From UHGV virus genome UHGV-0310616: a stretch of 14,368 nt of DNA; one strand, given 5' to 3'. The position numbers and the translations under genes were made by a program. The notes under the pieces were generated by a model. That model was not told the DNA's origin and did not search any database. It saw only the letters and a list, made by a program, of their open reading frames with translations. Positions 142-14,368 of the stretch are shown here, piece by piece; the stretch's first letter is position 1; every line of letters begins with the position of its first letter. The DNA is from a virus.

Positions 142-522
142 TGGTGTAATGATCTCTTTATCACACCAATGAGACAATTCTCTGATCGTTTTTTCTCGTA
201 ACTTTTTATCGAACTGGTGATACATACCCGCAGTTACTGCCAAAAGAACAGTTTCTTGCATTTCAATAAGTGACCAGACGTAGTTTACACCCTCCTCATA
301 TGCTTGCTCATAGGCTGCCATTGGGTCGTCAAAATCAGGATTGAAATGCTCAGCGGTATACTCCAGAAACTGTTTCTCTCGCTCCTCCGCCTCTTGGGTC
401 AGATCCCCAAACTGAGACAAAAGTCTCCGTCTTGCTTCCGAAACATAAAATTCGTGAGGTTCAAGAAAATAGGGCCGATCTACTTTAGCAAGCCAAAATG
501 TCACGAAGTTATCTGATGACAT
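139..522 (-). CDS. Hypothetical protein, 127 aa, acidic; stop codon coincides with the IS terminus
   Basis: ORF with AAGGA RBS 7 nt upstream of ATG (520-522 on minus). AT-rich relative to the island core. No domain recognised. Confidence 0.7.
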   Translation of the reverse strand: MSSDNFVTFWLAKVDRPYFLEPHEFYVSEARRRLLSQFGDLTQEAEEREKQFLEYTAEHFNPDFDDPMAAYEQAYEEGVNYVWSLIEMQETVLLAVTAGMYHQFDKKLREKTIRELSHWCDKEIITP

Positions 523-585
523 AACTTATCCTTGATAATTATTGTATGGATAGATTATCCAGAAATTTGCGAACTGAGTCGGTCA

Positions 586-596
586 TTTTTTTTTTT
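586..596. repeat. Homopolymeric T11 tract in a divergent intergenic region
   Basis: Eleven consecutive T at 586-596, between the start of the minus-strand gene (522) and the plus-strand gene at 669. Confidence 0.9.
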
Positions 597-668
597 GTGT
601 GCGCGTGATGTAATAAAGGTTCAGGAATATACTGTCAGTTTACTGAAAAACTGGCAACAGAGGCGGTT

Positions 669-896
669 ATGAGCGAGAGTTACGAGTTCTCAGCAGGTTG
701 TTTTTTGAAGCTATCAATATCTTCAGGGTATTTCACTATCAAAATTCAGGGAGATCTCCCCGCTCGTGCAGCTAGTGCCATCTTGGCAGATGATGTCGAG
801 CAGGTTTTATCTCAACTAGACAAATGTTTTCAGCTGAGTAATAGGCAACGAGAAGGGATCGTTAAGTATCTTATGTCGAAGGGGATGCAGCCTTGA
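669..896 (+). CDS. Hypothetical small protein, 75 aa; first gene of a coupled pair
   Basis: ATG at 669 with GAGG upstream; stop TGA (894-896) overlaps the ATG (896-898) of the next gene. Confidence 0.6.
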   Translation: MSESYEFSAGCFLKLSISSGYFTIKIQGDLPARAASAILADDVEQVLSQLDKCFQLSNRQREGIVKYLMSKGMQP

Positions 897-1354
897 TGAC
901 TTGGATCACCCAAACAGATAACTGGACAGGGATCGCGGCGTGGGCGGGTTTTGCTTTGTCCGTATTTCAATTACTAAAATCCAGAACATCGCTAAGGCTT
1001 TATCTCGGATGTGATCAGCACGAGGACAGGATATACGTTTCGAACATAAGCGCACACGATGTAACGTTGAGTGCAGCCGGTGTGGTAACAGCCAGTGGAC
1101 GCCTTAGAATGTTATCCGACGAATATTCGGACGAGAACATGATCACACCGATGCTGCCAAAAAGATTGAAAGCACGAGACGAAATGGTCTTGAACGTGCC
1201 ATTCATAAATAAGGCTCATCACAACAAAGTGCATCATCGTGGCGGGGTTTATATCAAAACATCTGACGGCAAGATGTTCAGTGATGTTTGTTGGATCAAA
1301 CGCCAATGGTGGTGGTTACTGTCTGTAATACTACGAGACACAAAGCGATACTAA
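896..1354 (+). CDS. Hypothetical membrane protein, about 152 aa
   Basis: Starts at ATG 896 (track start 893 is a TTG). Hydrophobic N-terminal segment GIAAWAGFALSVFQLL and a C-terminal hydrophobic/Trp-rich segment QWWWLLSVIL. Translationally coupled to the upstream ORF. Confidence 0.65.
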   Translation: MTWITQTDNWTGIAAWAGFALSVFQLLKSRTSLRLYLGCDQHEDRIYVSNISAHDVTLSAAGVVTASGRLRMLSDEYSDENMITPMLPKRLKARDEMVLNVPFINKAHHNKVHHRGGVYIKTSDGKMFSDVCWIKRQWWWLLSVILRDTKRY

Positions 1355-1434
1355 GTTGATTGATAGTCCGAGGTGATGTTCTGCCCAGCGTAGTTGCTGG
1401 GTGATACACCTTCAATGATTCTTGTTAGTGTGTA

Positions 1435-1443
1435 GGGGGGGGG
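1435..1443. repeat. Homopolymeric G9 tract immediately 5' of a start codon
   Basis: Nine consecutive G at 1435-1443, then C, then ATG at 1445. Confidence 0.9.
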
Positions 1444-1444
1444 C

Positions 1445-1663
1445 ATGTTGGATTTTAAAGCTGAGTTTGTTGGCGGCAGCCATAGCGGCGAGGTTATATC
1501 ACCGATGTCCGAGGTAGAACTTAATAAACTAGGGTATAGAGTCCATTTACGTGGTGCCCCCTCTGGCGATGAAATGCCTGTACACGTTGTTGTACCTATT
1601 GAATGGTCAGCGGATGAAGCACACAGAGCCATAATGCAGCGCTGGGGTAAACGCAGACGGTAG
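1445..1663 (+). CDS. Hypothetical small protein, 72 aa
   Basis: ORF directly downstream of the G9 tract, which could act as a G-rich Shine-Dalgarno. Composition more protein-like than the overlapping antisense ORF 1351-1674. No domain recognised. Confidence 0.35.
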   Translation: MLDFKAEFVGGSHSGEVISPMSEVELNKLGYRVHLRGAPSGDEMPVHVVVPIEWSADEAHRAIMQRWGKRRR

Positions 1664-2380
1664 ATGTCGCGCATTTCTCTTAAACTGGCTGCTGTGTTTG
1701 GTGCTAATTATCCATGCAAAGTGGCCTAAGCTACGTGGAAGAATGATCAGTTTCGCATTATTTGGTTCAAGGAGGGCTCCCCCACAGCCTCACTCTCTGA
1801 ATGCAAAACAGCCCCACAATCCCACTGTTAAAAGTCCCAGCTTGAAAATTGCACGCTTATGGTTGCCCCTCCCTCAACTCTATAGCTCGCCCGCGCCCCC
1901 GTGTGCATGTGCGTGCCCGCGCGTCAGGGGTCGCTGAGAAACCCTAAGATTTTGCTCATCCGAGACAAGCATTACAGGAGCGTGCTACTGAGCGAGATGC
2001 TGGCTGATTGCTGTTGCTGAATAACCGTGTGGGACGAGTGCTGCGATCATCTGCCTTTCACTGTGTATCTGTACATCCCTCTAAAACGATCTGTATCGCT
2101 CTGTGCTGCGTTCTGTGCTTCCAATGTGTGATTCAATGCCTTTGTGATTTCGAGATCGTGGCGGTGCCGTGCTGATCTGCTGCGTGCGCTCTACGCTGTG
2201 TTCGCTGGATGTGCCGGGGAATGCTGCTGTGGGGCGGTGCCAGTCTCTTTCGGGTATACCTGATAAAGACATAGACACACTGTCTCATTTGACTATCTAT
2301 AAAACTCTATTGACTACACATTATTGATGTGATCTCTTATAGGTCTTGCTGTGATATTTCATTGAGACTTAGGGGGAAGC

Positions 2381-3013
2381 ATGGCACACAATGCGCTTAT
2401 CTATTGCCGCGCCAGTACATCAGAGCAACACGCAGACCGGGCGCTGGGCTTGCTGCGAGAGTTCGCCAGTGATCGGGGCTGGCCTGTACGGGCGGAGTAC
2501 ATCGAGAACGCCAGCGGTGCGAGGCTGGCGCGTCCTGAACTAATGCGCTTGCTGGATGATGCGCAGGCCGGAGAGGTCTTGCTTGTCGAGAGCATCGACA
2601 GGCTAAGCCGCCTTACGCAAAAGGAATGGGCGACACTGAAACAGAGGATTCAGGATAAGGGACTGGTGATCGTTGCCGTTGACCTGCCAACCTCATGGCA
2701 ACTACTGAACGATACGGCGTCAGAGCTTACAGAGGGCATCCTGAGAGCTGTTAACGCAATGCTGATTGATATCCTCGCTACGATGGCACGAGTGGACTAC
2801 GAGACACGCAGAGCACGCCAAGCGCAGGGCATCAAGCGTGCCAAAGCCGAGGGGAAATATAACGGGAAGTCTAAGGATGAGAGCGCCCGTGAAACTGTCC
2901 GCGCTATGCTTACCGTTGGGAATAAACCAGAGCACATCATGAAAGCTGCCGGGATAAGCCGGGCAACGTTCTACCGTATCAAACGTGAGCTGTCCGCCAG
3001 CGTTACAGAGTGA
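2381..3013 (+). CDS. Small serine recombinase (resolvase/DNA invertase family), 210 aa
   Basis: N-terminal catalytic motif IYCRASTSEQ (serine nucleophile context), ESIDRLSR motif, and C-terminal HTH (GISRATFYRIKRE) laid out as in gamma-delta resolvase and Hin. GGGGGA RBS upstream. Confidence 0.9.
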   Translation: MAHNALIYCRASTSEQHADRALGLLREFASDRGWPVRAEYIENASGARLARPELMRLLDDAQAGEVLLVESIDRLSRLTQKEWATLKQRIQDKGLVIVAVDLPTSWQLLNDTASELTEGILRAVNAMLIDILATMARVDYETRRARQAQGIKRAKAEGKYNGKSKDESARETVRAMLTVGNKPEHIMKAAGISRATFYRIKRELSASVTE

Positions 3014-3454
3014 TGACCTACAGTCTGATGAGATGCCAGCACTGGCCGTTACTGGGCTGTGGGTGATGGATGGCCTACAGCTTTTGTATTGATATCAGAT
3101 ATTTATGTTATGCCTAATCTCGTAATGGTATGATTTATAATGTATTTCCGTATTACTTGCGGCTCTTGATATGAAGAGATGGCGGGGCTTTAGCCGTGCC
3201 AGACGATGAGTATCAAGATCAGATTGTGAATGTGATTTATCACTGAACAATTCGAGGGATGGGGCAGGGGAAGGGATCAAAGGCTGTGTTGTCCAATCAC
3301 TCAGCTAGATTTGAAGCAGGGCAACACCTTCGTTTTACCTTTAAAGTTGCATTTAAAATACATGTACAGAAAAGGGTTCTTCCCTTTCATCCCTTCTCCT
3401 AATCAGTGTTATCGCTTTTCGCTCTACACTGGCTGCGCTTCTCGCTATGCTCCA

Positions 3455-3497
3455 GCCCGCTCCATCGCCTTTGGCTCATTCCCGGCCTTCGCCCGCT
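3455..3497 (+). repeat. Degenerate att-core-like (tRNA 3'-end-like) repeats
   Basis: GCCCGCTCCA (3455-3464) equals the last 10 nt of the att core at 13718-13727. GGCTCATTCCCGGCCTTCGCCCGCT (3473-3497) resembles GGTTCGATTCCCTTCGCCCGCT of the core, with a 12-nt exact block CCTTCGCCCGCT. Confidence 0.3.
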
Positions 3498-3762
3498 GTG
3501 ATGCTCGGCCCTCCACGCAACCGTGCTTGCCAGGCAGTCAACGCGGCGGGGATAGAGTAGTGGTACGGTACTATATTGGGATATGGTACTCACAATGCCG
3601 CTTATAACCCCTTACATCCCAGCATCCCAACAAACCTACTGAAAGTTATCAGCAAATCATTCATCAAGTCAGACAGGGCAAGGCTTACAAAGGTGTTGAT
3701 TAAAAAATAATCAAATTAGAGTTTCTACTGTGGCAAAACGAACACCACTCGCTTGTGCATAC

Positions 3763-3830
3763 GTAGTGACCTACATGAAAGTCACTACTAAAGAGGGACA
3801 GAACATTCAACGTCACTGCTGACATGAAAT
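3763..3830. promoter_or_regulatory. Candidate operator/regulatory repeats upstream of the helicase gene
   Basis: Perfect inverted repeat GTAGTGAC (3763-3770) N10 GTCACTAC (3781-3788); third GTCACT at 3812-3817; direct repeat ACATGAAA at 3773-3780 and 3823-3830. Lies 75-140 bp upstream of ATG 3904. Confidence 0.3.
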
Positions 3831-3903
3831 TCTCTCTACGGGCAGCTCGGCGCTGCCGTCCTGCGCCTCGTTCTAAACTCACCTTAATTTTGGAGATTTC
3901 ACC

Positions 3904-5748
3904 ATGCCAACGAACCTACGCCGTTTGCTTGCGCAGGCTGCCGACGCTGACCCGCTCAATACCGCAAACGCAGATGTACAGCAAATGGTCGCTGACGGGA
4001 TTGTTATTCGGCGTTCCAAGATATGCCCGATAAAGCATAAACCCGTTAAGGCGGCATACAACACGAAGACCGAAGAGTTTTATTACAATGCTGATGGCTC
4101 CGCTATGACCCTGCGGGAATGGCGAGCGCTGCATGGTGTTCAACCGAAGAAGCAAAAACAGCGCTCTGACACGGGGTTGCGGCAAGTCATCCAGCCCGGT
4201 GACGCAATTCATTGCCGACGCGCTGAGATAGAAATGTGGCTCAACAAGAAGCCTGCTCGGTATGCTGACCCGCTGCCGCCTGATTTTCCCGGTGTTCGCG
4301 TAGATGATGCCGCATTGAAACCGCGCGAGCACGCCGTTTCGGCATCGACAACCGGGCAGAATGCTTTTCTCAAAGCCTGCCGCGAGTTCCTGATTTGTGA
4401 TGAGAAGACTATACACCGCATCAACAGGGGCATGAATAAACTGGAAGCGATGCGCAATTCAGATTTCAAACGCTACGGGGACTCAGCGGAGTTTCGTCAA
4501 TTGTGGTGTGGAGAGTCGAAACCTACCGAGGATAAATTTAACAGTACAAATCATCATTGTGACCCAAACGGCTTGGCAGTGTCGCCGTCTGTGCCGTCAC
4601 TGAATACAGCCTCTTATGAGTTTCGCCCGCTGGTTCGCTGTGACCGAAACGCACGCGTTAGCCTGTTGCCACCCGATGGGCTGGAGTGGAGGCCGGGGCA
4701 GTTGTCTGTTGCTGATGCGATCTTCTCCCGTGGTAGTGATGTGCTGGCCGTTCTGCCTACGGGTTATGGCAAGACCGCCGCCTTCGCTTATCCATTGATT
4801 TATGAGTCCCGCGCTGGCGTTGGCCTGTCTGTAATCGTGGTTCCCACTAATACCCTAAAGCGCCAGATTCTCCGCCAGTTGCGGGATGCTGGCGTTCACG
4901 CTGTGGCATTCGGTGACAAGTTGCCGAGGCACCGCAACGCTCAACAACTCGCGGGGCTGGCTGCCGGGGCGTTCCGTGTTGCTGTCGTTTCACCTGAGCA
5001 TCTTGTTCTGTCGAGTCAGGTCTTCGCGGCGCTGATGGCTTACGGCGTTGATCGTTTTATCATCGACGAAGCGCACACGGTTAAAGACTGGGATTTCCGA
5101 CCCGCTTACGAGGCCATGCAGCACTCGCTACAACATGCCTTTCTTTCGGCTCAACGCTGCGTATTTACGGCTACGCTGCTACGCGAAAATGAGCGCAGTT
5201 TAATGGCGTCGCTTGGCTGCCGTGGTGATTACGTAACATTCCGTGCTGATGTTGCTCGCGAAAATATCCAGTTGACGACAGTCAGACAGTGCCGCGAACG
5301 TTTCCGAGCGGCTATTGGTCTGGTCGAGGCTCTGCCGAAAGAAGAGAAGACGCTCATTCTCGTCAATGACCTTAAGACGTTGCGGGCGTACCTGAAACTC
5401 TTAGGCGACCGGGCGCGCCCATATCACTCGAAGACGATGCACTTGAGTAACGAAGAACGCCACGCAAACGCTGAGTGGTTTGCCACTACGCCGGGCGCAA
5501 TTCTGATTGCTACTAAAGCCTTCGGGCTGGGGGCTGATGTGCCAGACATTCGCAACGTCATCGTTACATATATTCCTGATGACCTGCCTGACCTCATTCA
5601 GATGATTGGACGAGCCGGGCGCGATGGTCAACCTGCCCGCGCGTTTCTGCTGTGGTCATCGCTGGCGCTGGATGCTGCGCCTGATGAGCTTGCTTACTTC
5701 TACCGCCCTGAAAACTGCAACTGGCAGTACATCGCTAAATACCTCTGA
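3904..5748 (+). CDS. RecQ-family (SF2) DNA helicase with a roughly 260-aa N-terminal extension of unknown function
   Basis: Motif I LPTGYGKTAAF; motif II IIDEAHTVKDWDFRPAY (RecQ-type DEAH...DFRP); motif III FTATL; motif V/VI ATKAFGLGADVPDIRNVI...GRAGRDGQPA. WRPGQ precedes motif I as in RecQ. No RQC/HRDC-like tail. GGAG RBS. Confidence 0.9.
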   Translation: MPTNLRRLLAQAADADPLNTANADVQQMVADGIVIRRSKICPIKHKPVKAAYNTKTEEFYYNADGSAMTLREWRALHGVQPKKQKQRSDTGLRQVIQPGDAIHCRRAEIEMWLNKKPARYADPLPPDFPGVRVDDAALKPREHAVSASTTGQNAFLKACREFLICDEKTIHRINRGMNKLEAMRNSDFKRYGDSAEFRQLWCGESKPTEDKFNSTNHHCDPNGLAVSPSVPSLNTASYEFRPLVRCDRNARVSLLPPDGLEWRPGQLSVADAIFSRGSDVLAVLPTGYGKTAAFAYPLIYESRAGVGLSVIVVPTNTLKRQILRQLRDAGVHAVAFGDKLPRHRNAQQLAGLAAGAFRVAVVSPEHLVLSSQVFAALMAYGVDRFIIDEAHTVKDWDFRPAYEAMQHSLQHAFLSAQRCVFTATLLRENERSLMASLGCRGDYVTFRADVARENIQLTTVRQCRERFRAAIGLVEALPKEEKTLILVNDLKTLRAYLKLLGDRARPYHSKTMHLSNEERHANAEWFATTPGAILIATKAFGLGADVPDIRNVIVTYIPDDLPDLIQMIGRAGRDGQPARAFLLWSSLALDAAPDELAYFYRPENCNWQYIAKYL

Positions 5749-5786
5749 GTCGAAAGGCTCCCCCTCATTCTCTGGAGTTAATCCAT

Positions 5787-6224
5787 ATGCCTGTTACCGA
5801 ACATGCGCAGCGTCGTGCTACGCGTGCGGATGCGCTCGTCACCGCACAACTTGCCTTCGCCCTGAACGGATATTCCTTCGATGGGTTAGCTGAGCGCCAC
5901 CGCCAGACTCTTAATCGTGCGGCCATCTTGCGCCAAGCTGGTACGCCGCTACAGCGGTATTGCCTGCTCAATCACTGTGAGCCTTGGGAATGTCTGGCCG
6001 CTGTGCTGAATAGATTCCGACGCCGGGAGGATGGCGCTCGTCTTTGGCCGACCTATCGCATGGCTCGTGAGGTCTTTAATGGGACTGTTCACCCTGCCAA
6101 CAAGACGCGCGACGAGATATTTCAATCTGTGCAGCGTCGCCTCTTTTTACCAAAACCAGTACACGCCGAAGTAATCCAGTACCTGCGCGTAATGGGGCTG
6201 ACAGGAGTTAATCCGCATGACTAA
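5787..6224 (+). CDS. Hypothetical protein, 145 aa
   Basis: ATG with GGAG RBS (GGAGTTAATCCATATG). First of a chain of overlapping, translationally coupled ORFs. No domain recognised. Confidence 0.7.
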   Translation: MPVTEHAQRRATRADALVTAQLAFALNGYSFDGLAERHRQTLNRAAILRQAGTPLQRYCLLNHCEPWECLAAVLNRFRRREDGARLWPTYRMAREVFNGTVHPANKTRDEIFQSVQRRLFLPKPVHAEVIQYLRVMGLTGVNPHD

Positions 6225-6423
6225 AACCGAGTTTGAAAATGAAACGTGGCGAATGAAAGGCTTGCTTCTTGGGGCGCTAATCCGCCGCCTTGAGGAAGAC
6301 AAGGCTGGTGAGTCGCGCATGGCCGCAGCGGAGTTATCCAGTGCGGTCAACTTCCTTAAGGCCAATGCCGTAGAAGCGCCGGACACGTCATTTAACCGTG
6401 TATTTGAGGATGACGAGCAATGA
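6217..6423 (+). CDS. Hypothetical protein, 68 aa
   Basis: ATG preceded by the same RBS context (GGAGTTAATCCGCATG); overlaps the end of the upstream ORF and the start of the next. Confidence 0.6.
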   Translation: MTKTEFENETWRMKGLLLGALIRRLEEDKAGESRMAAAELSSAVNFLKANAVEAPDTSFNRVFEDDEQ

Positions 6424-6596
6424 CACCCGCAGAGTTTAGAGCATGGTTTGCAACCCTGCCGCCGAACTATCAGAGCGCAGCACGAGCCATGTATGAAAGC
6501 GCCCGCAAGACGGGAACACACACCGCTTCCAGCCTGCTACTCATTCGCACGCTGATTGAAGATCAAATCAATTTCGATGGAGACTTTACCTTATGA
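6420..6596 (+). CDS. Hypothetical protein, 58 aa (not in the supplied ORF track)
   Basis: ATG 6420 overlaps upstream stop (ATGA), stop overlaps the next ATG at 6593 (ATGA). Translation MTPAEFRAWFATLPPNYQSAARAMYESARKTGTHTASSLLLIRTLIEDQINFDGDFTL. Fills an otherwise unexplained gap in a coupled operon. Confidence 0.5.
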   Translation: MTPAEFRAWFATLPPNYQSAARAMYESARKTGTHTASSLLLIRTLIEDQINFDGDFTL

Positions 6597-7156
6597 CAGT
6601 TCTGAGCCTGACCGATATCCAGCGCATCAATACCCTCGTTAAGCGCGACCTTCGCAATGTGGAAGAGGTAGTCGCTGCAACCGGATTTGACCCGGAGGAC
6701 GTTGACGCGGTGCTGCGCGGCGTTTATGTAGCCGACCTTGCCAACCAGTGGAGGGATGAAGCCGCTATTACGCTGGAGGAATACAACGCCATCCGTAAGC
6801 GCTGGAAACCGGGGCGCGGCCACTGGGACACTGCACATGCCATTGCACGCGATTTTCTAATTCGGCCTGAAACTGTGCTGGCTATCGTCCATTCCCGCTT
6901 TAGCAACGCCCACACCCACCCGATGCCGAAAGCAGTTAAAGCAAAGCCTGAGAAACCGCAGACGATGCGCCGCCTGTTGAGCGCCGACCTCGATCAGATG
7001 CACAAGCTGGAGCGCTTCGGCTGGAAACAAACCGAGATCGCTGGGGAGCTTGGGATCTCTGCTGAGGCTGTTGCTCATGTCCTGCGCCTGATGCGTAGCA
7101 AGTGGTCTTATCCAGATATTTTGGAAGACGTTAACACGCGATTCGGGGCTAAGTGA
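6593..7156 (+). CDS. HTH-containing protein, 187 aa (regulator or possible small-terminase-like DNA-binding protein)
   Basis: C-terminal segment GWKQTEIAGELGISAEAVAHVL resembles a sigma-70 region 4 / LuxR-type helix-turn-helix. Coupled to flanking ORFs. Confidence 0.7.
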   Translation: MTVLSLTDIQRINTLVKRDLRNVEEVVAATGFDPEDVDAVLRGVYVADLANQWRDEAAITLEEYNAIRKRWKPGRGHWDTAHAIARDFLIRPETVLAIVHSRFSNAHTHPMPKAVKAKPEKPQTMRRLLSADLDQMHKLERFGWKQTEIAGELGISAEAVAHVLRLMRSKWSYPDILEDVNTRFGAK

Positions 7157-7389
7157 TGGCAGAGAACGAACCGCTGCACCCTGCCGTTAACCCTGATCTC
7201 TATGTGAACCTTGACGAACAGCGCGAGGGATACGCCCCGTTTGAATCACGCGGCTGGGATGTGCTGACACAGAACCTGTCCGGGGAAGGGCGAACTGATC
7301 CCGGCCAAGCACCAAACCAGAATCCAAGGCAGCGACCGCGTGGCTCCGTTGGCGAGCGACGTTGGTTGCGTCGTCATGGCCTTATCTAA
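7156..7389 (+). CDS. Hypothetical protein, about 77 aa
   Basis: ATG 7156 overlaps upstream stop TGA (TGATG); track start 7153 is GTG. Confidence 0.55.
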   Translation: MAENEPLHPAVNPDLYVNLDEQREGYAPFESRGWDVLTQNLSGEGRTDPGQAPNQNPRQRPRGSVGERRWLRRHGLI

Positions 7390-7403
7390 CTGAGGATTAT
7401 TTC

Positions 7404-7643
7404 ATGAGCACCATTATTTTAATGGAGCCACGCCGCGCGGCTGATTGCGGGCAACAACTGAAATTCATTGCCGAAGCCTTGAATCTTCGTCAAATCGATT
7501 TGGCTCATGTGTACCAGATCGACAGACAAGATCTCGGCAAAGCGTACCACGGACAGAAGATGATTCCTGCCCGATGCGTACACGCGCACATGCTTTTACT
7601 TGAACTGGCACATCGCCGAGTTACATCACAAGAGGTTGCATAA
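7404..7643 (+). CDS. Hypothetical protein, 79 aa
   Basis: ATG 7404 preceded by GAGGAT RBS; the track's longer 7362 start has no RBS. Confidence 0.6.
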   Translation: MSTIILMEPRRAADCGQQLKFIAEALNLRQIDLAHVYQIDRQDLGKAYHGQKMIPARCVHAHMLLLELAHRRVTSQEVA

Positions 7644-7645
7644 TC

Positions 7646-8332
7646 ATGGCTGACCAGAATGTTAATCCGTACCTTTCGGGCGCTGATACTGCGCCGCAGC
7701 AATCGCCGTACATGGCCGCACCTGTAGGCGCTGACAACGGCGCTAGCAGATTCGACCAGACAACACCTGATGCTGATTTCCTGAAAACGCAGCCAGCGAA
7801 CATTAATCAAAGCTGGAACGAAAGTAACTTTGCCAACCAGCAAGACCAGCAGATTGATGTTGCTGCGCAAGTGGGCGACACGCTGCAATTACAGGATGGC
7901 ACTACTGTTGAGTTGACTCCTGAACTTCATGGGCTGATGGGGCAGTTTCACCAGTCTGTCGAAAGCCAGCTAGGGCAGGGGACAGTTGACGCGATGTTGC
8001 AGTACGCTGGCACGCTCGACGCCGGGACGCAATCAACCCTTGAACGGATGGTTATGTCTGGCGACCCTGCGCAGATGCAGCGGGCGGTTCATTATCTGCA
8101 AGAGCGTATGGTCGCAGGCACTGCGACTGGTTATGTCCCATCACAGGGGAACCCATACGGCCAGCCTGCCTCGCAACCTGTTGGTATGTCTCATGCTGAG
8201 TTTATTGCAGCGTATGATCAGCTTTCGCAGTGGGCGCAGCAATCAGGGTATGGCCCCGGCCATCGCCAGTACGACGATCAATACCGCGCTCTGGTTGCGC
8301 AGCGCTCCGCTGGCAAACGCGCTGGCCGTTAA
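7646..8332 (+). CDS. Q/N-rich acidic protein, 228 aa; putative capsid scaffolding protein
   Basis: Low-complexity Gln/Asn/Asp-rich protein encoded two genes upstream of the capsid gene, echoing the scaffold-capsid order of T7-like phages. Function is inferred from position and composition only. Confidence 0.6.
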   Translation: MADQNVNPYLSGADTAPQQSPYMAAPVGADNGASRFDQTTPDADFLKTQPANINQSWNESNFANQQDQQIDVAAQVGDTLQLQDGTTVELTPELHGLMGQFHQSVESQLGQGTVDAMLQYAGTLDAGTQSTLERMVMSGDPAQMQRAVHYLQERMVAGTATGYVPSQGNPYGQPASQPVGMSHAEFIAAYDQLSQWAQQSGYGPGHRQYDDQYRALVAQRSAGKRAGR

Positions 8333-8491
8333 GCAATCGCCTGTCCTGTCTTCCCCACGTCTTAACCTTACGTTTTAGAGCCTGAATCGCGTTGTACATC
8401 GCCAGATGTACATTCGTATACCTGCACCTGTAAAACGCGAAATTACCTCTCAAACACCACACATAAACCCACTTTGCATTGAGATCTGACA

Positions 8492-8839
8492 ATGACCTTA
8501 CTGACACCTGAAAACGTGGCAGCGGCTAGGGCTGCCCGTAGCGCGAGGATTGAACACTGGAAAGCCAACGCCAGCCAGCTTAAGCAGGACTTTGCTGACG
8601 AAGCGCACTGGCGGCGGCTCGCCTCACGCTTCGGCGTGCGTATGCCCTCGGCGTATGTTCCCGGCTCCGAGCTGCGATTGCTGCGCCGGGCGGCCAAACG
8701 CGCGGGCATCTCTGGTGCTGATATGCGCGATGCTTTTGGTGGGGGCGTTGCGCACCTGCACGAGCTTAATCCCCATTGGCCTGCCTTCGCGCTTATCGGC
8801 CTGATTCTTGAGATCGCGGCTGAAAAAGCTGCTGCCTGA
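8492..8839 (+). CDS. Hypothetical protein, 115 aa
   Basis: ORF between the putative scaffold and capsid genes; same strand and GC content as neighbours. Confidence 0.6.
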   Translation: MTLLTPENVAAARAARSARIEHWKANASQLKQDFADEAHWRRLASRFGVRMPSAYVPGSELRLLRRAAKRAGISGADMRDAFGGGVAHLHELNPHWPAFALIGLILEIAAEKAAA

Positions 8840-8907
8840 TTCATCCCATTCTCTTTTCCCCTTTTCCATAAATCGCGCTGGCTAACGCTGGCGCGGGAGC
8901 TATTTCT

Positions 8908-9903
8908 ATGACTGACAATGTTTATACCCCTGACCAATTCCGCCCGCACTGGGGCGGTGTAGATGCTGACAACGACATTCACATTGAAGCGTATGACCGG
9001 GACGTTCAGACCCGCCTTGAGGCAAAGAGCGTGTTTCTCGCCGAGGGGCTGAGCACATACAAGCCGCTGAAAAACAGTAATCAGTATCGTGTAGACCGCC
9101 TGAGCGGAGATCTGGAGGTGAAGGGCAGAACCGCAGGGCAATCGCTGGAGCCTACCGCCGTTAAGTCGGACAAGCTGATTATCTCTGTGGATACGCTGAG
9201 CTATATCCGCATCCCGATTGACTATCAAGACGACTGGACAGCGCCCACCTTTCGCGCAGAGCTGAGCCGCAACATGGGGACAGCCCATGCAAAGTTCTAC
9301 GACGAAGCGCACACTATCCAGCTAATCAAAGCGACTGACTTTGTACCGCCGCCTACGTTGCAACCAACGTTTAACCCGCTGACGGATAATGTTGTCTCGC
9401 TCGACCTGACAACGGGGAGCGAAGAGGATGCGGCTAACGAACTGGTTCACGCTATTAAAGCTGCTGTTAATCGATTCCTAACTGAAAAAGATATTCCGGT
9501 GGCGGAGCTGTGCCTTCTCATCGACCCAGCTTGGTTCAGCATCCTGATGGAACATAAGAAGTTGATGAACGTCCGTTACAGCCGGGATAGTGGCAATGAT
9601 TACGCATGGCGTCGCGTTGGCTATGTCGCTGGGGTGCGAGTTATTGAGCTGAACAGTTACCCGCAGGAAGCCATTACCGCGCATGAACTGGGCGCTGATT
9701 ATGATGTGACCGCAGGGGAAGCGCTGACACGGGCGACGCTGTTCCGGCCTGCGTCTGTACTTGTGACAGTCGAAGCGCAGAGCGTTATCAATCGCCAGTG
9801 GGATGATGAACGCGAAATGACAATGGTGATGGACTCATATCGCCTGTTCAATGTTGGGCTGCGCCGCCCTGACTGCGTTATAAATTTCCGACAAGCTGCA
9901 TAA
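8908..9903 (+). CDS. Major capsid protein, T7 gp10-like family (HK97 fold), 331 aa
   Basis: GGGAG RBS. By recollection of T7 gp10, several blocks align: KLIISVDTL...IDYQDD...RAEL...G...A...DEA, DPAWFSIL...VRY, and the C-terminal ...Y...GLRRP...VINF matching T7 ...Y...GLRPE...VVF. Size also fits. Not verified by search. Confidence 0.6.
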   Translation: MTDNVYTPDQFRPHWGGVDADNDIHIEAYDRDVQTRLEAKSVFLAEGLSTYKPLKNSNQYRVDRLSGDLEVKGRTAGQSLEPTAVKSDKLIISVDTLSYIRIPIDYQDDWTAPTFRAELSRNMGTAHAKFYDEAHTIQLIKATDFVPPPTLQPTFNPLTDNVVSLDLTTGSEEDAANELVHAIKAAVNRFLTEKDIPVAELCLLIDPAWFSILMEHKKLMNVRYSRDSGNDYAWRRVGYVAGVRVIELNSYPQEAITAHELGADYDVTAGEALTRATLFRPASVLVTVEAQSVINRQWDDEREMTMVMDSYRLFNVGLRRPDCVINFRQAA

Positions 9904-9919
9904 CAAAAGGGGCCGAGCC

Positions 9920-10447
9920 ATGAATATTGATGCTTATGCCCCGGAGCTGTTGCGCTCTTTGTTTCGGTACGATGCGAAGACTGGCCGCCTGTTCCATGCA
10001 GTAGACCGGATCGGAGCCAACAAGCGGATTTACGCTAAAGCCGGGGAACTGGCCGACACGGTAACGGACAGCGCCGGATATAGGCGCGTATCTGTCCGCA
10101 TCAATGGCAAATCTCATGCGCTATACGCCCACCGTGTCGCCTTCATCATTGCTAATGACGGTATCCCTGCCGGGATGCAAATCGACCATATCAACGCGGT
10201 ACGCGATGACAACCGCCTTATCAATCTCCGCACGGTTACGCCACAAGAGAACCAGCACAATTACCGCAAAGCCAAGGGTTATAGCCACCATGCCTGCTCT
10301 GGCAGATGGGAGGCTTACATTCGCGTTGGTGGTGTTCGCCATCACCTCGGCTTATTCACTACCGAAGCGGCGGCGCGTGCTGCGTACCTGAAAGCTAAAG
10401 CCAGATACCATCCGTCAACGCCAGCCGATTTATTGCAGGCTGCCTAA
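9920..10447 (+). CDS. HNH endonuclease with C-terminal AP2-like DNA-binding domain, 175 aa
   Basis: HNH signature HRVAF...QIDHINAVRDDNRLINLRTVTPQENQHN (His, Asn, Asn, His core) followed by W-EAYIRVGGVRHHLGLFTTEAAARAAY, typical of the AP2 domain attached to phage HNH nucleases. Confidence 0.8.
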   Translation: MNIDAYAPELLRSLFRYDAKTGRLFHAVDRIGANKRIYAKAGELADTVTDSAGYRRVSVRINGKSHALYAHRVAFIIANDGIPAGMQIDHINAVRDDNRLINLRTVTPQENQHNYRKAKGYSHHACSGRWEAYIRVGGVRHHLGLFTTEAAARAAYLKAKARYHPSTPADLLQAA

Positions 10448-10465
10448 TCCTCGGAGGTTCCATTA

Positions 10466-10891
10466 ATGGCTGATGAAAAGCCGATTAGAGCGCTGGCAGA
10501 TGATGACCCGCGCCGCCAGCGGTACGCTGAACTGTTGGCGCAGGCTGGCCGCATGACTATTCCACGGCTGCATCCGGGCGATGCTAACAGTGTTATGAGT
10601 CAGCTTGCGACAATGCTCGGAGCACCTGTCCCGATAGTAGGTGCTATGACTGAGCACGCCGCTGCATGGCGTGCCTGTCTTCTGGAGCAAGGGCTTGGTG
10701 ATCTTCTGGATGGCTTGAGTAAGCAGGTGCTGACCATCTTCTTTCTGCTCTGCTGGAGAGACAGCGCCTTGCGATTGGCGGGTAAGCAAAAGGAACGGTT
10801 TGCAGCGGCCAGCGAGGGTTTGACCATTGAGCAATACCGGGCAATGCACCCGGCTTACAGAGAGGATAAAGAAAATGATAACCACGATTAA
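10466..10891 (+). CDS. Hypothetical protein, 141 aa
   Basis: GGAGG RBS upstream of ATG 10466. No domain recognised. Confidence 0.7.
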   Translation: MADEKPIRALADDDPRRQRYAELLAQAGRMTIPRLHPGDANSVMSQLATMLGAPVPIVGAMTEHAAAWRACLLEQGLGDLLDGLSKQVLTIFFLLCWRDSALRLAGKQKERFAAASEGLTIEQYRAMHPAYREDKENDNHD

Positions 10892-11174
10892 ATTAAGGTG
10901 GCGGTACATCGAGCCGCCACCAATGACTGGCGCACTCGCTGACCTGAAACAGTGGGTAATGGATACCGGAGAGCCTGAGCTTGAAGCTAAATTTCGTAAG
11001 CTGCTGGGGCTGATGCGCCGCAATGGTATCAGTGACGAACGTGTTAATGCGATGGCCGCCGAGCTTTATGCTCTGGTATGCCAACGCCAGCGCGAAGAAT
11101 ACGAAGCCTGCAAACGGGCTGCATCTGACAGTGGAGGCTTTGAATCATGGTTACACGGACAGACCAACTACTAA
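10875..11174 (+). CDS. Hypothetical protein, 99 aa
   Basis: ATG 10875 with AGAGGA RBS 8 nt upstream (track start 10827 is TTG). Overlaps the upstream gene by 17 nt. Confidence 0.6.
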   Translation: MITTIKLRWRYIEPPPMTGALADLKQWVMDTGEPELEAKFRKLLGLMRRNGISDERVNAMAAELYALVCQRQREEYEACKRAASDSGGFESWLHGQTNY

Positions 11175-11584
11175 GAAAAGCGATGCGAGGCTATCTGGAA
11201 TATCTCGGCAACATGCCGCTAGCGGAACGCATTAAAAATTCTGCTGCGTTCGATGATGTGTATCACTTCCTGTTGAATGGTTCAGGACGGCTGGAGTTGC
11301 GCCGCGCTGATGTGGCCGCTGTCCGTGTCTTCCTGTGGAATTATCAATACCGACGCTGCGCGGTGACAGCTAAGCCGCTACGCCTCGCGTCTGCTGTATT
11401 GGATCACTGTCACCGAACTGGACGTGTGCGCGCTGTGGTTCATCGTTCGGCCAATGCAGCGGAAGGTGGTTATTATGTGGGAAATTTGTGCGGACTCTCA
11501 CGAGGTAGCATGTTAAGCATGCTACCTGCCTACCGCCGACAATACAAGGGGTTGGGCGTTATTTATCCAAGACAACATGCGTGA
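11147..11584 (+). CDS. Hypothetical protein, 145 aa
   Basis: GGAGG RBS; overlaps the end of the upstream ORF. Last gene of the GC-rich block. Confidence 0.65.
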   Translation: MVTRTDQLLRKAMRGYLEYLGNMPLAERIKNSAAFDDVYHFLLNGSGRLELRRADVAAVRVFLWNYQYRRCAVTAKPLRLASAVLDHCHRTGRVRAVVHRSANAAEGGYYVGNLCGLSRGSMLSMLPAYRRQYKGLGVIYPRQHA

Positions 11585-11670
11585 TGAGATTATTTCTTTT
11601 ATTTTCATTCGGTTATGTGTTGTTGTGGCTGCCTTGTTACTTGCCTATATTTAAAACAATTCTTGACGGA

Positions 11671-11700
11671 TTGACGTAGATTGCGTAGGCTGAGCATAAA
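11671..11700 (+). promoter_or_regulatory. Candidate sigma-70 promoter for the AT-rich two-gene cassette
   Basis: Tandem TTGACG hexamers (11664-11669 and 11671-11676), then an 18-bp spacer and CATAAA (11695-11700), about 85 nt upstream of ATG 11786. Confidence 0.3.
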
Positions 11701-11785
11701 ACAGTTTCCTAATATGTCTCCAAACTGAGCTTCAACTTGAGAATACTTCGTTCCTACATCTCCCTTGAAGGGGTAGGAGGATAAT

Positions 11786-11995
11786 ATGAACTTTGATATG
11801 CGTACAAACCAAAATTGTGCATCGTTTTTTAACCCAGCAACCAAGGCGTTTGTCGTCGTTGATTCGTTTGACAACTACGAATTCGATGTGCGTGCTGGTA
11901 CTTTATCACGCACTGAATTTGTAGGCACCATCACAGCTTCAAACGATGAAGAGTTGAACAAGAAATTAGCTGAGATCACGGCTGCACACATATGA
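11786..11995 (+). CDS. Hypothetical small protein, 69 aa; first gene of an AT-rich cargo pair
   Basis: Strong AGGAGG RBS. AT-rich, in contrast to the upstream block. Stop overlaps the next ATG (ATGA). Confidence 0.65.
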   Translation: MNFDMRTNQNCASFFNPATKAFVVVDSFDNYEFDVRAGTLSRTEFVGTITASNDEELNKKLAEITAAHI

Positions 11996-12366
11996 TAACT
12001 CAACAGCAGATTGATGATTTAGTTGCAGATATTAACGATATCTTGGAAGAAGATAGAGCCAAGCTAAAGATGTCATTTCATTTTGCTGTTGATAGACTTA
12101 ATGATCCGCGTAATAAACCTCCAATCACGTTAGCTGAGTTGAGAGTGATTTTTACAAATTTCATTGGACAACACTTGCAGACAATTCTAGGCAAAGATGA
12201 GGGATTTTCCTTCACTATCAAGTGTCAGAAATCTGGTATTGCTATACCGTGCGCTATAGAGCATGAACTTGATATCGGTGCAAAGTGGGTAGTTCAGCAA
12301 GTGATCACCATCATGCGGAATCCGCAGTTTAACGCGTATCATGGTGATGTCATCTTTGATGTTTAA
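11992..12366 (+). CDS. Hypothetical protein, 124 aa; second gene of the AT-rich cargo pair
   Basis: Translationally coupled to the 69-aa ORF and followed directly by a terminator. No confident domain assignment. Confidence 0.7.
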   Translation: MITQQQIDDLVADINDILEEDRAKLKMSFHFAVDRLNDPRNKPPITLAELRVIFTNFIGQHLQTILGKDEGFSFTIKCQKSGIAIPCAIEHELDIGAKWVVQQVITIMRNPQFNAYHGDVIFDV

Positions 12367-12370
12367 AAGA

Positions 12371-12392
12371 AAGGCGCTATAGCGCCTTTTTT
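12371..12392. terminator. Bidirectional rho-independent terminator between convergent genes
   Basis: Stem AAGGCGC (12371-12377), loop TATA, stem GCGCCTT (12382-12388), preceded by an A-run and followed by a T-run; sits between the cargo operon (+) and the integrase (-). Confidence 0.6.
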
Positions 12393-13611
12393 ATAAACAC
12401 GGATAACTGACCAACTCCACATACTCCCATAGTTCTTTCATCCCTGCTCCCTTGCTATATGTCCTGAAAGCTTCCGTTTTAGCTTTTTGTTCGGTATGCC
12501 CGGTTATTGCCCCTATGCGCTGTTCTGGTACTCCTGCTCTGTCTAAGCAAGTAATAAAGTGACCACGCAGGGAGTGGAAGCATTGGCGATCTGTAGCCGC
12601 TGACAGCACGCGACGGCGTAGCCGTGTAAATGCCTGCGAGTACCACGGGCCACGCTTACCGTCGGCACGTTTAATCTTGTTCGATTGGGGGAGCAGGTAT
12701 TCACCGTTGTTCTGCGCAAGGTATTTATCAACGATGCTGATTAACAGCGAGTGTATGGGGACGTGCCTTACACCCGCTTTAGTTTTAGATTTGCTGACGT
12801 AGAAGCAGCGTACCCCTTCAACTTTGATAATCTCAACTCGTTTGATGCTGGCGATTTCGTCGAGACGCATACCGGAATACAAACCGATTATGATTACGTC
12901 TCGTATCTCGCTACCTGCCTCTTTTATTAATGCCTGTAGCTGGTGTAGTTCAAAAGGTTGATAACTTTCGTTCGTCTGGCGGGCTTCCAGATTGTGGCCG
13001 TGAAAGGGATTATCAGGGGCGATATTGTCATATTTACGCCGGGCGAAGTCATACAGCGTCCCTAAGCAGGTTAACCAGTTTTGCAGCGTCTGGCGGGAAA
13101 ACTTATCTTGGTTCGCTTCCAGAAAGTCAGAGACGAGCCGCCGCCCGATTCCATTTATTGTAATGGTTGGGCGTTTTATTGAATTAGTAAATGCCGATAC
13201 AGCGCGAACTGATTTACTCAGCGTGGAATAAGAGCGCCGATCTTTGTATTGCTCTGCATATTCTTTACTGACATCTGTCAATTTTGGTGATGCTGGTTTT
13301 CCCCGCTCTGCTGGAATAGTTGCGGGTGTGGTAATGCTGCTGGATACCCCCGCCAGCAAGTGAAGATCTGTTACAGCGGAATGAATCCGGGTAATGGGGT
13401 TATCCGGTTTCATCATGAGCTGTAGCTTACGGAACTCTAATAAATATTGGTCACGGAAAATGCGAGCTTGCATGATGTCCCGTGTGCCTGTCGATTTCTT
13501 GAGCGAGCGCCGCCCGTTCCAGAGGTGGCGCATGTAGACCGGAATATAGATTTGAAAGATGAATATCCCATCTTTGTTTGCATAAAGATAAGAAGTCTTC
13601 TTGATTGGCAT
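12391..13611 (-). CDS. Tyrosine-type site-specific integrase, about 406 aa
   Basis: C-terminal catalytic region with HSLRGHF...GHT...RTYSK (His/Arg/His/Tyr arrangement of tyrosine recombinases); sits beside a tRNA-derived att core. Probable ATG start at 13611 (MPIKK...) with AAGG upstream; the track's 13641 start is TTG. Confidence 0.85.
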   Translation of the reverse strand: MPIKKTSYLYANKDGIFIFQIYIPVYMRHLWNGRRSLKKSTGTRDIMQARIFRDQYLLEFRKLQLMMKPDNPITRIHSAVTDLHLLAGVSSSITTPATIPAERGKPASPKLTDVSKEYAEQYKDRRSYSTLSKSVRAVSAFTNSIKRPTITINGIGRRLVSDFLEANQDKFSRQTLQNWLTCLGTLYDFARRKYDNIAPDNPFHGHNLEARQTNESYQPFELHQLQALIKEAGSEIRDVIIIGLYSGMRLDEIASIKRVEIIKVEGVRCFYVSKSKTKAGVRHVPIHSLLISIVDKYLAQNNGEYLLPQSNKIKRADGKRGPWYSQAFTRLRRRVLSAATDRQCFHSLRGHFITCLDRAGVPEQRIGAITGHTEQKAKTEAFRTYSKGAGMKELWEYVELVSYPCL

Positions 13612-13699
13612 GGTAATTACCTTGTAATCTACCGCTACCAACTACCGGGATAAGTACCGCGATTACTTATTTTGGTTCACAATTCATAGGGTTAGCAAA

Positions 13700-13727
13700 G
13701 AGGGTTCGATTCCCTTCGCCCGCTCCA
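13700..13727 (+). other. attR core: 28-bp copy of the 3' end of tRNA-Gly (glyU-type, CCC anticodon), not a complete tRNA
   Basis: GAGGGTTCGATTCCCTTCGCCCGCTCCA contains the T-arm (GGTTCGATTCC), the 3' acceptor strand and CCA, matching the E. coli glyU 3' end from memory. Upstream sequence is not tRNA-like. Confidence 0.7.
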
Positions 13728-13960: not shown

Positions 13961-14259
13961 ATGAAAGGGAAATCTGCATTAACTCTTCTGCTCGCTGGTA
14001 TATTTTCGTGCGGCACATGCCAGGCGACAGGGGCAGAAGTGACGAGTGAATCTGTATTTAACATTCTTAATTCCACGGGGCAGCAACAGATAAAAGTTAT
14101 TTATCGTTAAATCCAGATAAGTACCCTAATTATCGTCTTCTGATTCACTCAGCCAAATTAAAAAATGAAATAAAGAGCCACTATACCAAAGACGAAATTC
14201 AAGGGTTGTTAACATTAACAGAAAACACGGCTTTGTTGAATAAATCAGATTTCGGGTAA
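13961..14259 (+). pseudogene. Small secreted/lipoprotein-like gene, apparently frameshifted
   Basis: ATG 13961 gives MKGKSALTLLLAGIFSCGTCQATGAEV... (signal-peptide-like) and stops at 14110; a second frame is open from 14071 to 14259 with coding-like composition but no start codon. The two overlap near a G4 run (14077-14080). Confidence 0.3.
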
Positions 14260-14284
14260 GTCTCCCCCGTAGCGGGTTGTGTTT

Positions 14285-14368
14285 TCAGGCAATACGCACG
14301 CTTTCAGGCATACCTGCTTTCGTCATTTTGTTCAGCGCTCGTACCAGGGCCATAGCCTCCGCAACCTG
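14285..14368 (-). CDS. 3' end of an unidentified convergent gene (partial, continues beyond window end)
   Basis: Minus-strand frame open to the window edge: ...QVAEAMALVRALNKMTKAGMPESVRIA, stop at 14287-14285. A weak hairpin (CCCG-TAG-CGGG, 14265-14275) lies between the convergent genes. Confidence 0.35.
   Translation of the reverse strand, partial: QVAEAMALVRALNKMTKAGMPESVRIA

Follow-up and report, generated by a model that had tools for sequence, protein, structure and literature searches.

Structural and putative packaging genes of the island

The stretch of DNA analysed here, UHGV virus genome UHGV-0310616 (14,368 nt, called the window throughout), carries an integrative island with a capsid gene of its own, which is probably a satellite of lytic phages of the family Autographiviridae. 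An original prediction, made from the letters of the DNA, had described a satellite-like island with a T7-type capsid and a scaffold, set in a GC-rich block of genes on one strand with coupled small open reading frames (ORFs). This layout was recovered: a block of 53-59% G+C runs from about 3.9 to 11.6 kb between flanks of 39-47%, every gene from 3904 to 12366 is on the + strand, and several neighbours are linked by 4-nt overlaps of start and stop. All ORFs were scanned with Pfam (cut at E ≤ 0.01), PHROG, NCBIfam and PADLOC profiles.

The 331-aa product of 8908-9903 (+; WP_000131804) is a full-length major capsid protein of the Autographiviridae, of the phiKMV/Bonnellvirus-like type. It matches phrog_267 (2.8e-67) and aligns over its full length with the solved phage capsid chains 23sf, 8eld, 8vb0 and 9s9b (E from 5e-78 to 2.5e-54). 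The capsid protein of Escherichia phage Lidtsur is 57.7% identical to it over 98% of the length. Altogether 777 GenBank phage records were matched, and all the classified ones are Autographiviridae; the best matches come from Bonnellvirus and then Waewaevirus (51-58% identity over 98% of the protein), podophages of Escherichia, Enterobacter, Kosakonia, Cronobacter and Pantoea, which overlap the host genera of the island. T7 gp10 itself was not reached from the island protein with phmmer, so that the label "T7-type" is valid at the family level only. By its sequence the protein is an HK97-fold capsid protein of T7's family; the gp10-like capsid of the original prediction was right as to fold and family, and the closest relatives proved to be of the phiKMV/Bonnellvirus type rather than gp10.

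The scaffold gene (7646-8332, +) immediately precedes the capsid gene, an arrangement shared with the related phages. Its 228-aa product is probably a shortened head-scaffolding protein that keeps little beyond the conserved C-terminal region. The match to phrog_1018 (5.4e-5) covers the C-terminal half only, and five of ten family members match this PHROG (best E 2.9e-7). When a profile of the family was compared by hhalign with a profile of six Autographiviridae scaffolds, a probability of 97.1% and an E value of 6.3e-11 were obtained; residues 120-228 align to the last ~100 residues of the phage scaffolds with the C-termini flush. The phage proteins measure 286-411 aa, against 228 aa in the island. 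No match to phages was found by tblastn, and a phmmer search of 1.84 billion representative proteins returned satellite-family proteins only, so that the homology is detectable by profile methods only. The putative scaffold of the original prediction can thus be kept. Between scaffold and capsid lies a variable slot, occupied here by an accessory gene (8492-8839, +; phrog_21723, 1.3e-52, function not annotated) and by other genes in some copies of the island.

A third gene with a packaging relative was found further upstream. The 68-aa product of 6217-6423 (+) is probably a miniature homologue of the T7 gp18-type small terminase (TerS). It matches PF11123 (3.3e-4) with 21.1 bits, against a Pfam gathering cutoff of 27.5, over about 38 of the 79 profile positions, and phrog_891 at 0.004. 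Among 21 family members of the protein, 15 match PF11123 at E ≤ 0.01 (best 2e-8). The small terminase of Lidtsur was matched by tblastn and, in BLASTP, with 47% identity over 30 aa; hhalign of the 68-aa family against Lidtsur gp48 gave 66% and 5.6e-5. We call the ORF a probable mini small terminase because five lines of evidence, each weak to moderate, all agree in direction. The original prediction, which had the element encode only capsid and scaffold, was correct in both and had missed this gene.

The remaining functions of a phage were not found. The helicase is the only ORF of more than 420 aa in the window, and in the Pfam, PHROG and NCBIfam scans no ORF matched a family of portals, large terminases, tail or internal-core proteins, lysis proteins, or RNA or DNA polymerases, in agreement with the absence of portal, large terminase and tail genes proposed at the outset. 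When the island proteins were compared with the whole 42.3-kb Lidtsur genome by tblastn, only the capsid matched, together with weak matches to endonuclease VII and the small terminase. Profiles were also run against all 55 Lidtsur proteins, and those of eight small-ORF families gave only the small terminase link and a weak match to gp51. The closest phages, Bonnellvirus and Waewaevirus (Lidtsur, J8-65, Kc261, LIMEzero), have the most similar capsids, a scaffold with a homologous C-terminus, a small terminase and an endonuclease VII, but as complete lytic phages of 41-43 kb they also encode a portal, a tail tube, both polymerases (RNA and DNA), internal proteins, lysis functions and a large terminase, all of them missing from the island. 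Neither the window nor 13 related genome loci contained a fragment of a gene for the RNA or DNA polymerase, the portal, the tail tubular proteins A and B or the large terminase, and an Autographiviridae phage or prophage was rejected on this ground.

Integration site, family and element size

The right end of the island is an attR core of 28 nt (13700-13727, +), identical to the last 28 nt of the tRNA-Gly(CCC) gene glyU, as the original prediction had placed it; equivalent 28-nt repeats flank the copies found at tRNA-Leu. No tRNA gene lies within the window. When the tRNA-Gly gene was joined to the window from 13728 onward, the rebuilt empty site was found in one piece, at 100% identity and coverage, in complete Escherichia coli genomes, and in 2985 E. 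coli genomes at least 80% of it was covered in one place. Since the joined sequence occurs uninterrupted in other strains, the insertion, from the glyU 3' end to 13727, is base-exact. The comparison of glyU loci suggested earlier thus shows a site that is occupied or empty among strains. The true left end (attL, the glyU 3' end) lies 688 nt left of window position 1, an offset taken from the copy in E. coli VREC0864 (L001). Between the end of the tRNA and that of the attR repeat the element is therefore about 14.4 kb long, and the window is nearly all of one intact family member. A left boundary near 3.5 kb and a size of about 10 kb, as first supposed, were both wrong. The strings read as att-like repeats (3447-3456 and 3486-3497) lie inside a non-coding block common to all family members; as the tRNA-Leu copies keep this block too, the strings are no remnant of an att site, and the idea of such a remnant, or of a tandem island, at 3.5 kb was rejected.

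The predicted integrase was confirmed as a tyrosine integrase of 406 aa starting MPIKK (12391-13611, -; PF00589, 4e-10); its alignment with the 403-aa integrase of another copy (L002) starts at residue 11 of the long ORF. Across the family the integration site is either tRNA-Gly(CCC) or tRNA-Leu(CAA), each with the corresponding integrase; in the tRNA-Leu(CAA) copies it is swapped for one that is 36% identical.

The VREC0864 copy matches the window at 100% identity in two segments, 142-2967 and 3517-13600. To its left the genome continues with glyU, preceded by actS and xdhABC, and nothing phage-like; the original prediction had named adjacent genes for portal, terminase or tail as the mark of an ordinary degraded prophage, and none was found on that side. 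This copy has a 549-bp deletion (window 2968-3516) with a 5-nt microhomology at the junction (L001 14820-14824), which takes away the C-terminus of a recombinase and a conserved RNA-like core. Its attR position is occupied by IS1A (L001 24903-25616). As it has lost the non-coding core through the deletion and attR through IS1, we regard it as a decaying copy and that of the window as intact. The deletion was also considered as a recombinase product and rejected, since a junction at 5-nt microhomology is not recombinase-like.

Other insertions were seen around the site. The right end of the window (14229-14368) is a fragment of the insertion sequence IS903, 100% identical to the IS903 of phage P7 and others, inserted about 500 nt past attR, within the ygeQ region (glycoside hydrolase 15), the usual sequence after glyU. 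In E. coli 5735 (L004), the island lies between identical copies of a second element (1-5410 and 18840-22870) composed of a 544-aa integrase, a DUF4145 gene and two hypothetical genes, which suggests that insertion at the glyU/ETT2 site was tandem or nested. The attR of one tRNA-Leu copy (L059 15157-15229) ends in a short tandem array (CCTTCGCA x4) with no clean core.

The distribution of the family was surveyed in 5426 complete E. coli genomes with the scaffold-capsid segment as query. About 60 of them carry it (66 matches were listed, a few of which are 73-nt fragments), and an intact copy is present at leuX of enteropathogenic E. coli (EPEC) E2348/69. A scan of one genome per species added copies in Trabulsiella, Kosakonia, Kluyvera and five Enterobacter species, and protein searches added Cronobacter, Klebsiella variicola and Phytobacter. 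About 29 more metagenome contigs with the same genes were retrieved by a conserved 20-nt motif.

Synteny was compared in the 13 genome loci, which come from five genera (E. coli, Enterobacter, Kosakonia, Kluyvera and Trabulsiella), and a 14-gene core is syntenic in all of them. From the tRNA the order is cargo, serine recombinase, non-coding block, helicase, a 145-aa ORF, the small terminase-like gene, ORFs of 58, 187, 78 and 79 aa, scaffold, a variable slot, capsid, HNH nuclease, ORFs of 141 and 99 aa, endonuclease VII, a second variable slot, integrase and attR. A second lineage in Enterobacter (L057) has nearly the same order with proteins 33-60% identical and the HNH gene relocated upstream of the helicase; a third capsid lineage is represented by P0027, and the scaffold search likewise gave three lineages. 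In a rough neighbour-joining tree without support values all satellite capsids group together in a single clade whose sister is formed by those of Bonnellvirus and Waewaevirus, which suggests one old capture of the capsid gene followed by diversification. Identities are mosaic across genera: the small terminase-like protein of the window has 98.5% identity with its counterparts in Trabulsiella and Kluyvera, against 72% with those of other E. coli copies. This mosaicism implies exchange between hosts. A locus of Methylotenera (L015) that had been considered as a distant satellite was rejected, as it holds an ordinary phage head-tail module (portal, scaffold, capsid, tail tube).

The core genes evolve under purifying selection, strong for the capsid, with ratios of nonsynonymous to synonymous substitution (dN/dS) of 0.06-0.09 for the capsid, 0.15-0.22 for the scaffold and 0.10-0.14 for the helicase; capsids within lineage 1, that of the window, are 92-97% conserved. 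These data bear on the explanation that the island is a decaying remnant of an integrated T7-like prophage, that is, of a temperate member of the Autographiviridae that has lost most of its genome. Such phages with integrases do exist, LUZ100 being an example, and the capsid, scaffold, small terminase and endonuclease VII of the island all have Autographiviridae counterparts. A remnant would hardly show the same content and order in 13 loci of five genera and again in a lineage only 33-60% identical, with all core ORFs intact and a capsid under such constraint, and no copy holds a fragment of the polymerase, portal, tail tube or large terminase genes. The order is also unlike a collapsed phage map, with the small terminase-like gene upstream of the scaffold and a helicase of RecQ type in place of a phage primase/helicase. 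We consider decay from a prophage very improbable.

Eight copies measure 14.6-15.2 kb and that of the window about 14.4 kb, a narrow range despite the differing cargo in three slots. The closest phages have genomes of 40.8-42.5 kb, which gives a ratio of island to phage of 0.34-0.36. P4 with its helper P2, and SaPI1 with 80alpha, form T=4 shells from the proteins of T=7 helpers. Because the island would stand in the same ratio to its helper, T=4 shells would be expected of it. The one-third ratio would also suit a full head with three copies in it: a concatemer of three units (3 x 14.4-15.2 kb, about 43-46 kb) could fill a helper-sized capsid, in which the capsid and scaffold proteins of the island modify or replace helper subunits, as the satellite protein Ccm does. 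T7-type packaging is known to act on concatemers (T7 gp18/gp19), and the island capsid protein is full length with no obvious size-determining change. A complete capsid gene and a drastically shortened scaffold are, however, hard to explain if the geometry of the shell stays unchanged, and the satellites known at one third of helper size, P4 and SaPI1, make T=4 shells. Packaging of trimers therefore seems to us improbable.

Presumed replication genes, nucleases and cargo

The RecQ-like helicase of the original prediction was recovered as a RecQ-family superfamily 2 helicase (3904-5748, +; DEAD 2e-22, Helicase_C 2e-14, recQ_fam 1e-39, the last under its curated cutoff). Only the core region has relatives elsewhere, and the N-terminal ~240 aa are specific to the family. 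The helicase is presumed to be the replication protein. It also matches the PADLOC DpdF submodel PDLC02858 over its whole length at 2.7e-268, a match that reflects the make-up of the submodel, which evidently contains this helicase family. A Dpd defence system was rejected, since no other gene of a dpdA-K cluster is present in the island beyond the helicase. Pipelines that annotate defence systems are likely to list these islands as partial Dpd systems.

Upstream of the helicase lies a conserved non-coding block (3010-3572, +) that is 85-95% identical at the nucleotide level in all loci, even where the allele of the recombinase gene before it shares only 25%. It contains a nearly invariant core of about 130 nt (3150-3283) behind a TATAAT-like box. 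The consensus fold has an energy of -40.7 kcal/mol on the + strand versus -26.0 kcal/mol on the - strand, and two or three hairpins are predicted. In the main one three pairs are compensatory and 99.7% of cells are paired among 20 distinct sequences, and slid controls of it gave zero compensatory change; this covariation is moderate evidence, because sequence diversity is low. A G-rich segment (3253-3283) and then a C-rich repetitive segment follow the hairpins. No match was found in Rfam, and the motif of the block was seen only in this island family. On a speculative note, the block could encode a primer or regulatory RNA, or be an origin of replication (ori) or packaging (pac) region.

The gene before the block (2381-3013, +) encodes a small serine recombinase of resolvase/invertase type (PF00239, 6.8e-25; phrog_125 DNA invertase, 3e-40), present at the same position in every locus in three divergent alleles of 25-98% identity. 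An invertible switch was considered in view of inverted repeats (3266-3283 and 3383-3400) beside this invertase-type recombinase and rejected, as no locus has the segment reversed. A terminator-like hairpin follows the recombinase gene. Downstream of a promoter-like site (3684-3711) and ahead of the start of the helicase gene there is a near-perfect 13+13 nt palindrome (GTAGTGACCTACA/TGAAAGTCACTAC) at 3763-3788, a possible operator. Scans for sigma-70 promoters and terminators gave fewer sites than shuffled sequence, or no more. No inducer-sensing regulator was recognised in the island. The lineage 2 locus L057 carries, between recombinase and helicase (2427-3068), a gene for Phage_pRha, an antirepressor-type regulator, which hints at a possible wiring of induction in lineage 2.

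Two nucleases were identified. The product of 9920-10447 (+) is an HNH (HNH_3) endonuclease of homing-endonuclease type (PF13392, 1.1e-13; phrog_99, 3.5e-48; PADLOC "HEase", 1.9e-8). The original prediction of an HNH-AP2 nuclease was borne out for the HNH part; AP2 was seen as a motif only and did not reach the Pfam cut. In lineage 1 this gene has two alleles, 63-65% and 85-87% identical to the copy of the window, and in lineage 2 it stands upstream of the helicase (L057 3727-4218). To judge from these sequences, it behaves more like a mobile homing endonuclease gene than like a fixed core gene. The second nuclease, encoded at 11147-11584 (+; PGAP start 11183), is a junction-resolving enzyme of endonuclease VII type (PF02945, 3e-6; phrog_423, 2.9e-15), with the weak match to its Lidtsur counterpart given above.

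The seven remaining core ORFs encode small conserved proteins and are all on the + strand. The 145-aa ORF (5787-6224) is syntenic in all loci and is the one with the weak hhalign match to Lidtsur gp51 (68%, 4.7e-5); the 58-aa ORF (6420-6596) is translationally coupled to its neighbours. The 187-aa product of 6593-7156 is a helix-turn-helix-like protein with weak matches to HTH_ParB, Sigma70_r3 and HTH_23. Its AlphaFold model (predicted local distance difference test, pLDDT, 84) is all-helical with three modules, and had no significant neighbour among PDB folds (best E 0.26); we presume that it is a DNA-binding regulator or site-recognition protein. The 78-aa ORF (7153-7389) is 81-100% identical in lineage 1 and 38% in lineage 2, and the 79-aa ORF (7404-7643) had no family match. 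Downstream of the HNH gene follow a 141-aa ORF (10466-10891), 85-98% identical in lineage 1, with no family match and a single-sequence model that was unusable (pLDDT 58), and a 99-aa ORF (10875-11174) syntenic among loci.

Three slots (1-2380, 8333-8907 and 11585-12390) turn over between copies, as seen on comparison with L002, L003, L005 and L059, and carry accessory or defence cargo. In the window, the tRNA-proximal slot includes an ORF at 139-522 (-) that matches phrog_19541 (function not annotated), and gave no PADLOC match over 1-2380; in other copies its place is taken by Rap1a, a DUF3800 gene or an XcyI-type restriction-modification pair. Either the phrog_21723 gene or unrelated genes of 137-160 aa occupy the slot between scaffold and capsid. 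In the integrase-proximal slot the window has two AT-rich accessory genes (11786-12366, +; phrog_14630 and phrog_14518, functions not annotated), and other copies have a YafO toxin, a cytosine methylase with an NmeDI-like nuclease, or a DUF3606 gene.

Such a gene content raises the question of an island that serves defence only. Its capsid and short scaffold could act as dominant-negative or decoy subunits that poison Autographiviridae assembly and its nucleases could attack phage DNA, the island itself spreading unpackaged by other routes. This would fit a capsid that is a diverged (57%) homologue of those of lytic phages on the same hosts, nucleases and a helicase family of which PADLOC lists the HNH homing endonucleases and the helicase as defence candidates, and restriction-modification and toxin genes in the slots of other copies; it would also fit the fact that evidence of packaging was not found, either in IMG/VR matches or in island-sized contigs. 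Yet a decoy has no need for a small terminase homologue, an endonuclease VII or a replication-type module, and a length held at 14.4-15.2 kb despite cargo turnover is not expected of it. The exchange of integrases from one tRNA site to another, and the mosaic identities among genera, point to efficient horizontal transfer. Interference and transfer as a satellite are moreover not mutually exclusive, and we think it unlikely that defence is the sole function.

Relation to presumed helper phages and to known satellites

Generic features of a satellite are found in the island: an integration module with defined ends is present, and the gene set for virion, packaging and lysis is incomplete, so that the island cannot form particles alone. 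For mobilisation by a helper phage, the narrow size range, the mosaic identities between genera and the swapped integrases give indirect support. It has a capsid, a shortened scaffold and a mini small terminase of its own but no portal, large terminase or tail, and for this reason it is likely to be a parasite of lytic T7-family phages. On the comparisons above we favour the view that these islands form a conserved family of integrative phage satellites whose helpers are most likely lytic Autographiviridae of Bonnellvirus/phiKMV-like type, with genomes of about 42 kb. The in-silico checks proposed with the original prediction came out in favour of its reading as a satellite, which is thus supported to the extent that sequence can show.

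A cycle of the following kind can be proposed. Infection by the helper would lead to excision driven by the integrase, and the helicase, acting with the adjacent non-coding block as a possible origin or primer RNA, would replicate the island. The capsid protein and short scaffold of the island would assemble on the portal and core of the helper into small shells, and the mini small terminase would direct the helper's large terminase to satellite DNA, with endonuclease VII trimming or resolving DNA branches. Tails and lysis functions of the helper would complete and release the particles. The diversion of portals, terminase and tails, possibly together with cutting of helper DNA by the HNH nuclease, would lower the yield of the helper and protect the host population. 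The details of the small capsid and of terminase redirection are less certain than the function as a satellite with an Autographiviridae-type helper. In Lidtsur the RNA polymerase gene lies late, adjoining the structural genes. In phiKMV, host RNA polymerase stays in use for early and middle transcription. The late position of the gene in phiKMV-like phages implies such use of the host enzyme, which would let a satellite transcribed by the host respond to infection.

Several observations weigh against this interpretation. Evidence for excision, replication, packaging or transfer, whether experimental or from viromes, was not found; both IMG/VR matches are chromosomal, with host flanks, and a 15.2-kb contig considered as a free element was rejected, because island-sized contigs merely break at the att repeats. 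The capsid is at most about 57% identical to any known phage capsid, which points to no particular phage as the helper. The match behind the small terminase assignment spans 30-40 residues and, for this copy, scores under the Pfam gathering threshold, and the size of the capsid is deduced from genome length alone. Motif searches of the island and Lidtsur and a short-word blastn revealed no helper-type promoter, packaging site or mimic of a terminal repeat; in the blastn the capsid gene was the sole match, with no shared motif. No repressor, antirepressor, excisionase or primase was recognised among the island genes, and half of the core proteins could not be assigned a function by family, profile or structure comparison.

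Among known satellites, the capsid-forming phage-inducible chromosomal islands (cf-PICIs) of Proteobacteria are reported to be elements of about 15 kb, found in Enterobacteriaceae, with their own capsid and small terminase and no tail or lysis genes (10.1101/2022.09.08.507074; PMC13612085). The likeness extends to integration, an HNH nuclease and accessory cargo. The cf-PICIs differ in having a portal, protease and head-tail connectors, often TerL, AlpA and a primase, and they steal tails only. In the island, portal, protease, connectors, AlpA and primase were not found, and the element was rejected as a cf-PICI despite its capsid and TerS-like genes; it has a scaffold in place of a protease-type module, and its capsid is that of a lytic podophage family. 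With only capsid, scaffold and mini small terminase it would also need to steal a portal and a large terminase. A classical PICI was rejected as well, since the integrase is present but structural genes are too, and no AlpA or primase/Pri-Rep match was found.

The Ccm protein of SaPIbov5 is reported to be a homologue of the helper capsid protein that makes a satellite-sized shell with the rest of the helper virion (PMC8569155). The island likewise encodes a homologue of the capsid protein of its presumed helper. Ccm, in contrast, shifts the head of a temperate Staphylococcus siphophage from prolate to isometric, and SaPIbov5 has Stl and Pri-Rep; the island adds a dedicated short scaffold and a gp18-like small terminase, and its presumed helper is a lytic podophage. 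P4-like satellites resemble the island in being enterobacterial, integrated at tRNA genes, about one third of the helper genome in size and provided with hotspots of defence cargo, and their T=4-from-T=7 logic serves as a functional model. P4 uses the helper's capsid protein, the external scaffold Sid, Psu, Delta and the alpha primase-helicase, and its helper is the temperate myophage P2. With the P4-like markers taken as summarised in PMC13612085 (sid, psu, delta, alpha), no match was obtained in any ORF with PHROG, Pfam or NCBIfam, and this class was also rejected. The statement of the original prediction that P4-like, PICI and cf-PICI elements use other genes agrees with the absence of their markers from the island.

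The presumed dependence on a lytic helper would resemble that of PLE (Vibrio cholerae and its phage ICP1), PICMI (Vibrionaceae) and MiniFlayer (Streptomyces). As described, such elements have to pass through excision, replication and packaging in one lytic cycle and their nucleases may restrict the helper. PLE remodels the ICP1 coat with an external scaffold of its own, TcaP, and PICMI goes without capsid genes. There is no sequence relationship with the island, and none of them involves T7-family phages or Enterobacteriaceae. For PLE proteins (RepA, TcaP, NixI and others) no suggestive match was seen in the comparison with the general PHROG and Pfam libraries. By analogy, the island would work most like cf-PICIs and SaPIbov5 with Ccm, in which the satellite encodes a capsid protein, with a size logic like that of P4.

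Full-text literature searches, outside whose coverage most subscription journals lie, gave no description of this family or of any Autographiviridae satellite, and the family is apparently undescribed. The joint claim would be that it is the first satellite family to live on lytic podophages of the T7 family in E. coli and related bacteria, building its own small capsid with a minimal scaffold on a stolen portal, redirecting the helper's large terminase with a 68-aa mini-gp18, replicating with a RecQ-type helicase from a new kind of transcription-primed origin (a structured RNA in which a G-rich segment precedes a C-rich one), and acting both as a gene vehicle and as specific immunity to a group of phages in wide therapeutic use; all these elements together can be put forward only tentatively.

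To our knowledge, the known enterobacterial satellites (P4-like, PICI and cf-PICI) all exploit temperate sipho- or myophages, and a satellite of Autographiviridae, if it is one, would fill a gap among them. The idea is testable, as the model strain EPEC E2348/69 carries a copy and candidate helpers growing on E. coli K-12 are held in collections. At present the islands probably go under a wrong label, either "Autographiviridae prophages" or "DpdF" defence matches. Such islands would affect Autographiviridae therapy phages in Enterobacter, Klebsiella, Cronobacter and E. coli. With its own capsid and scaffold and a stolen portal, motor and tail, the family would sit between the capsid-remodelling satellites and the cf-PICIs, and would offer a natural test of the way in which the length of the scaffold and the sequence of the capsid determine the T number in the best-studied podophage lineage.

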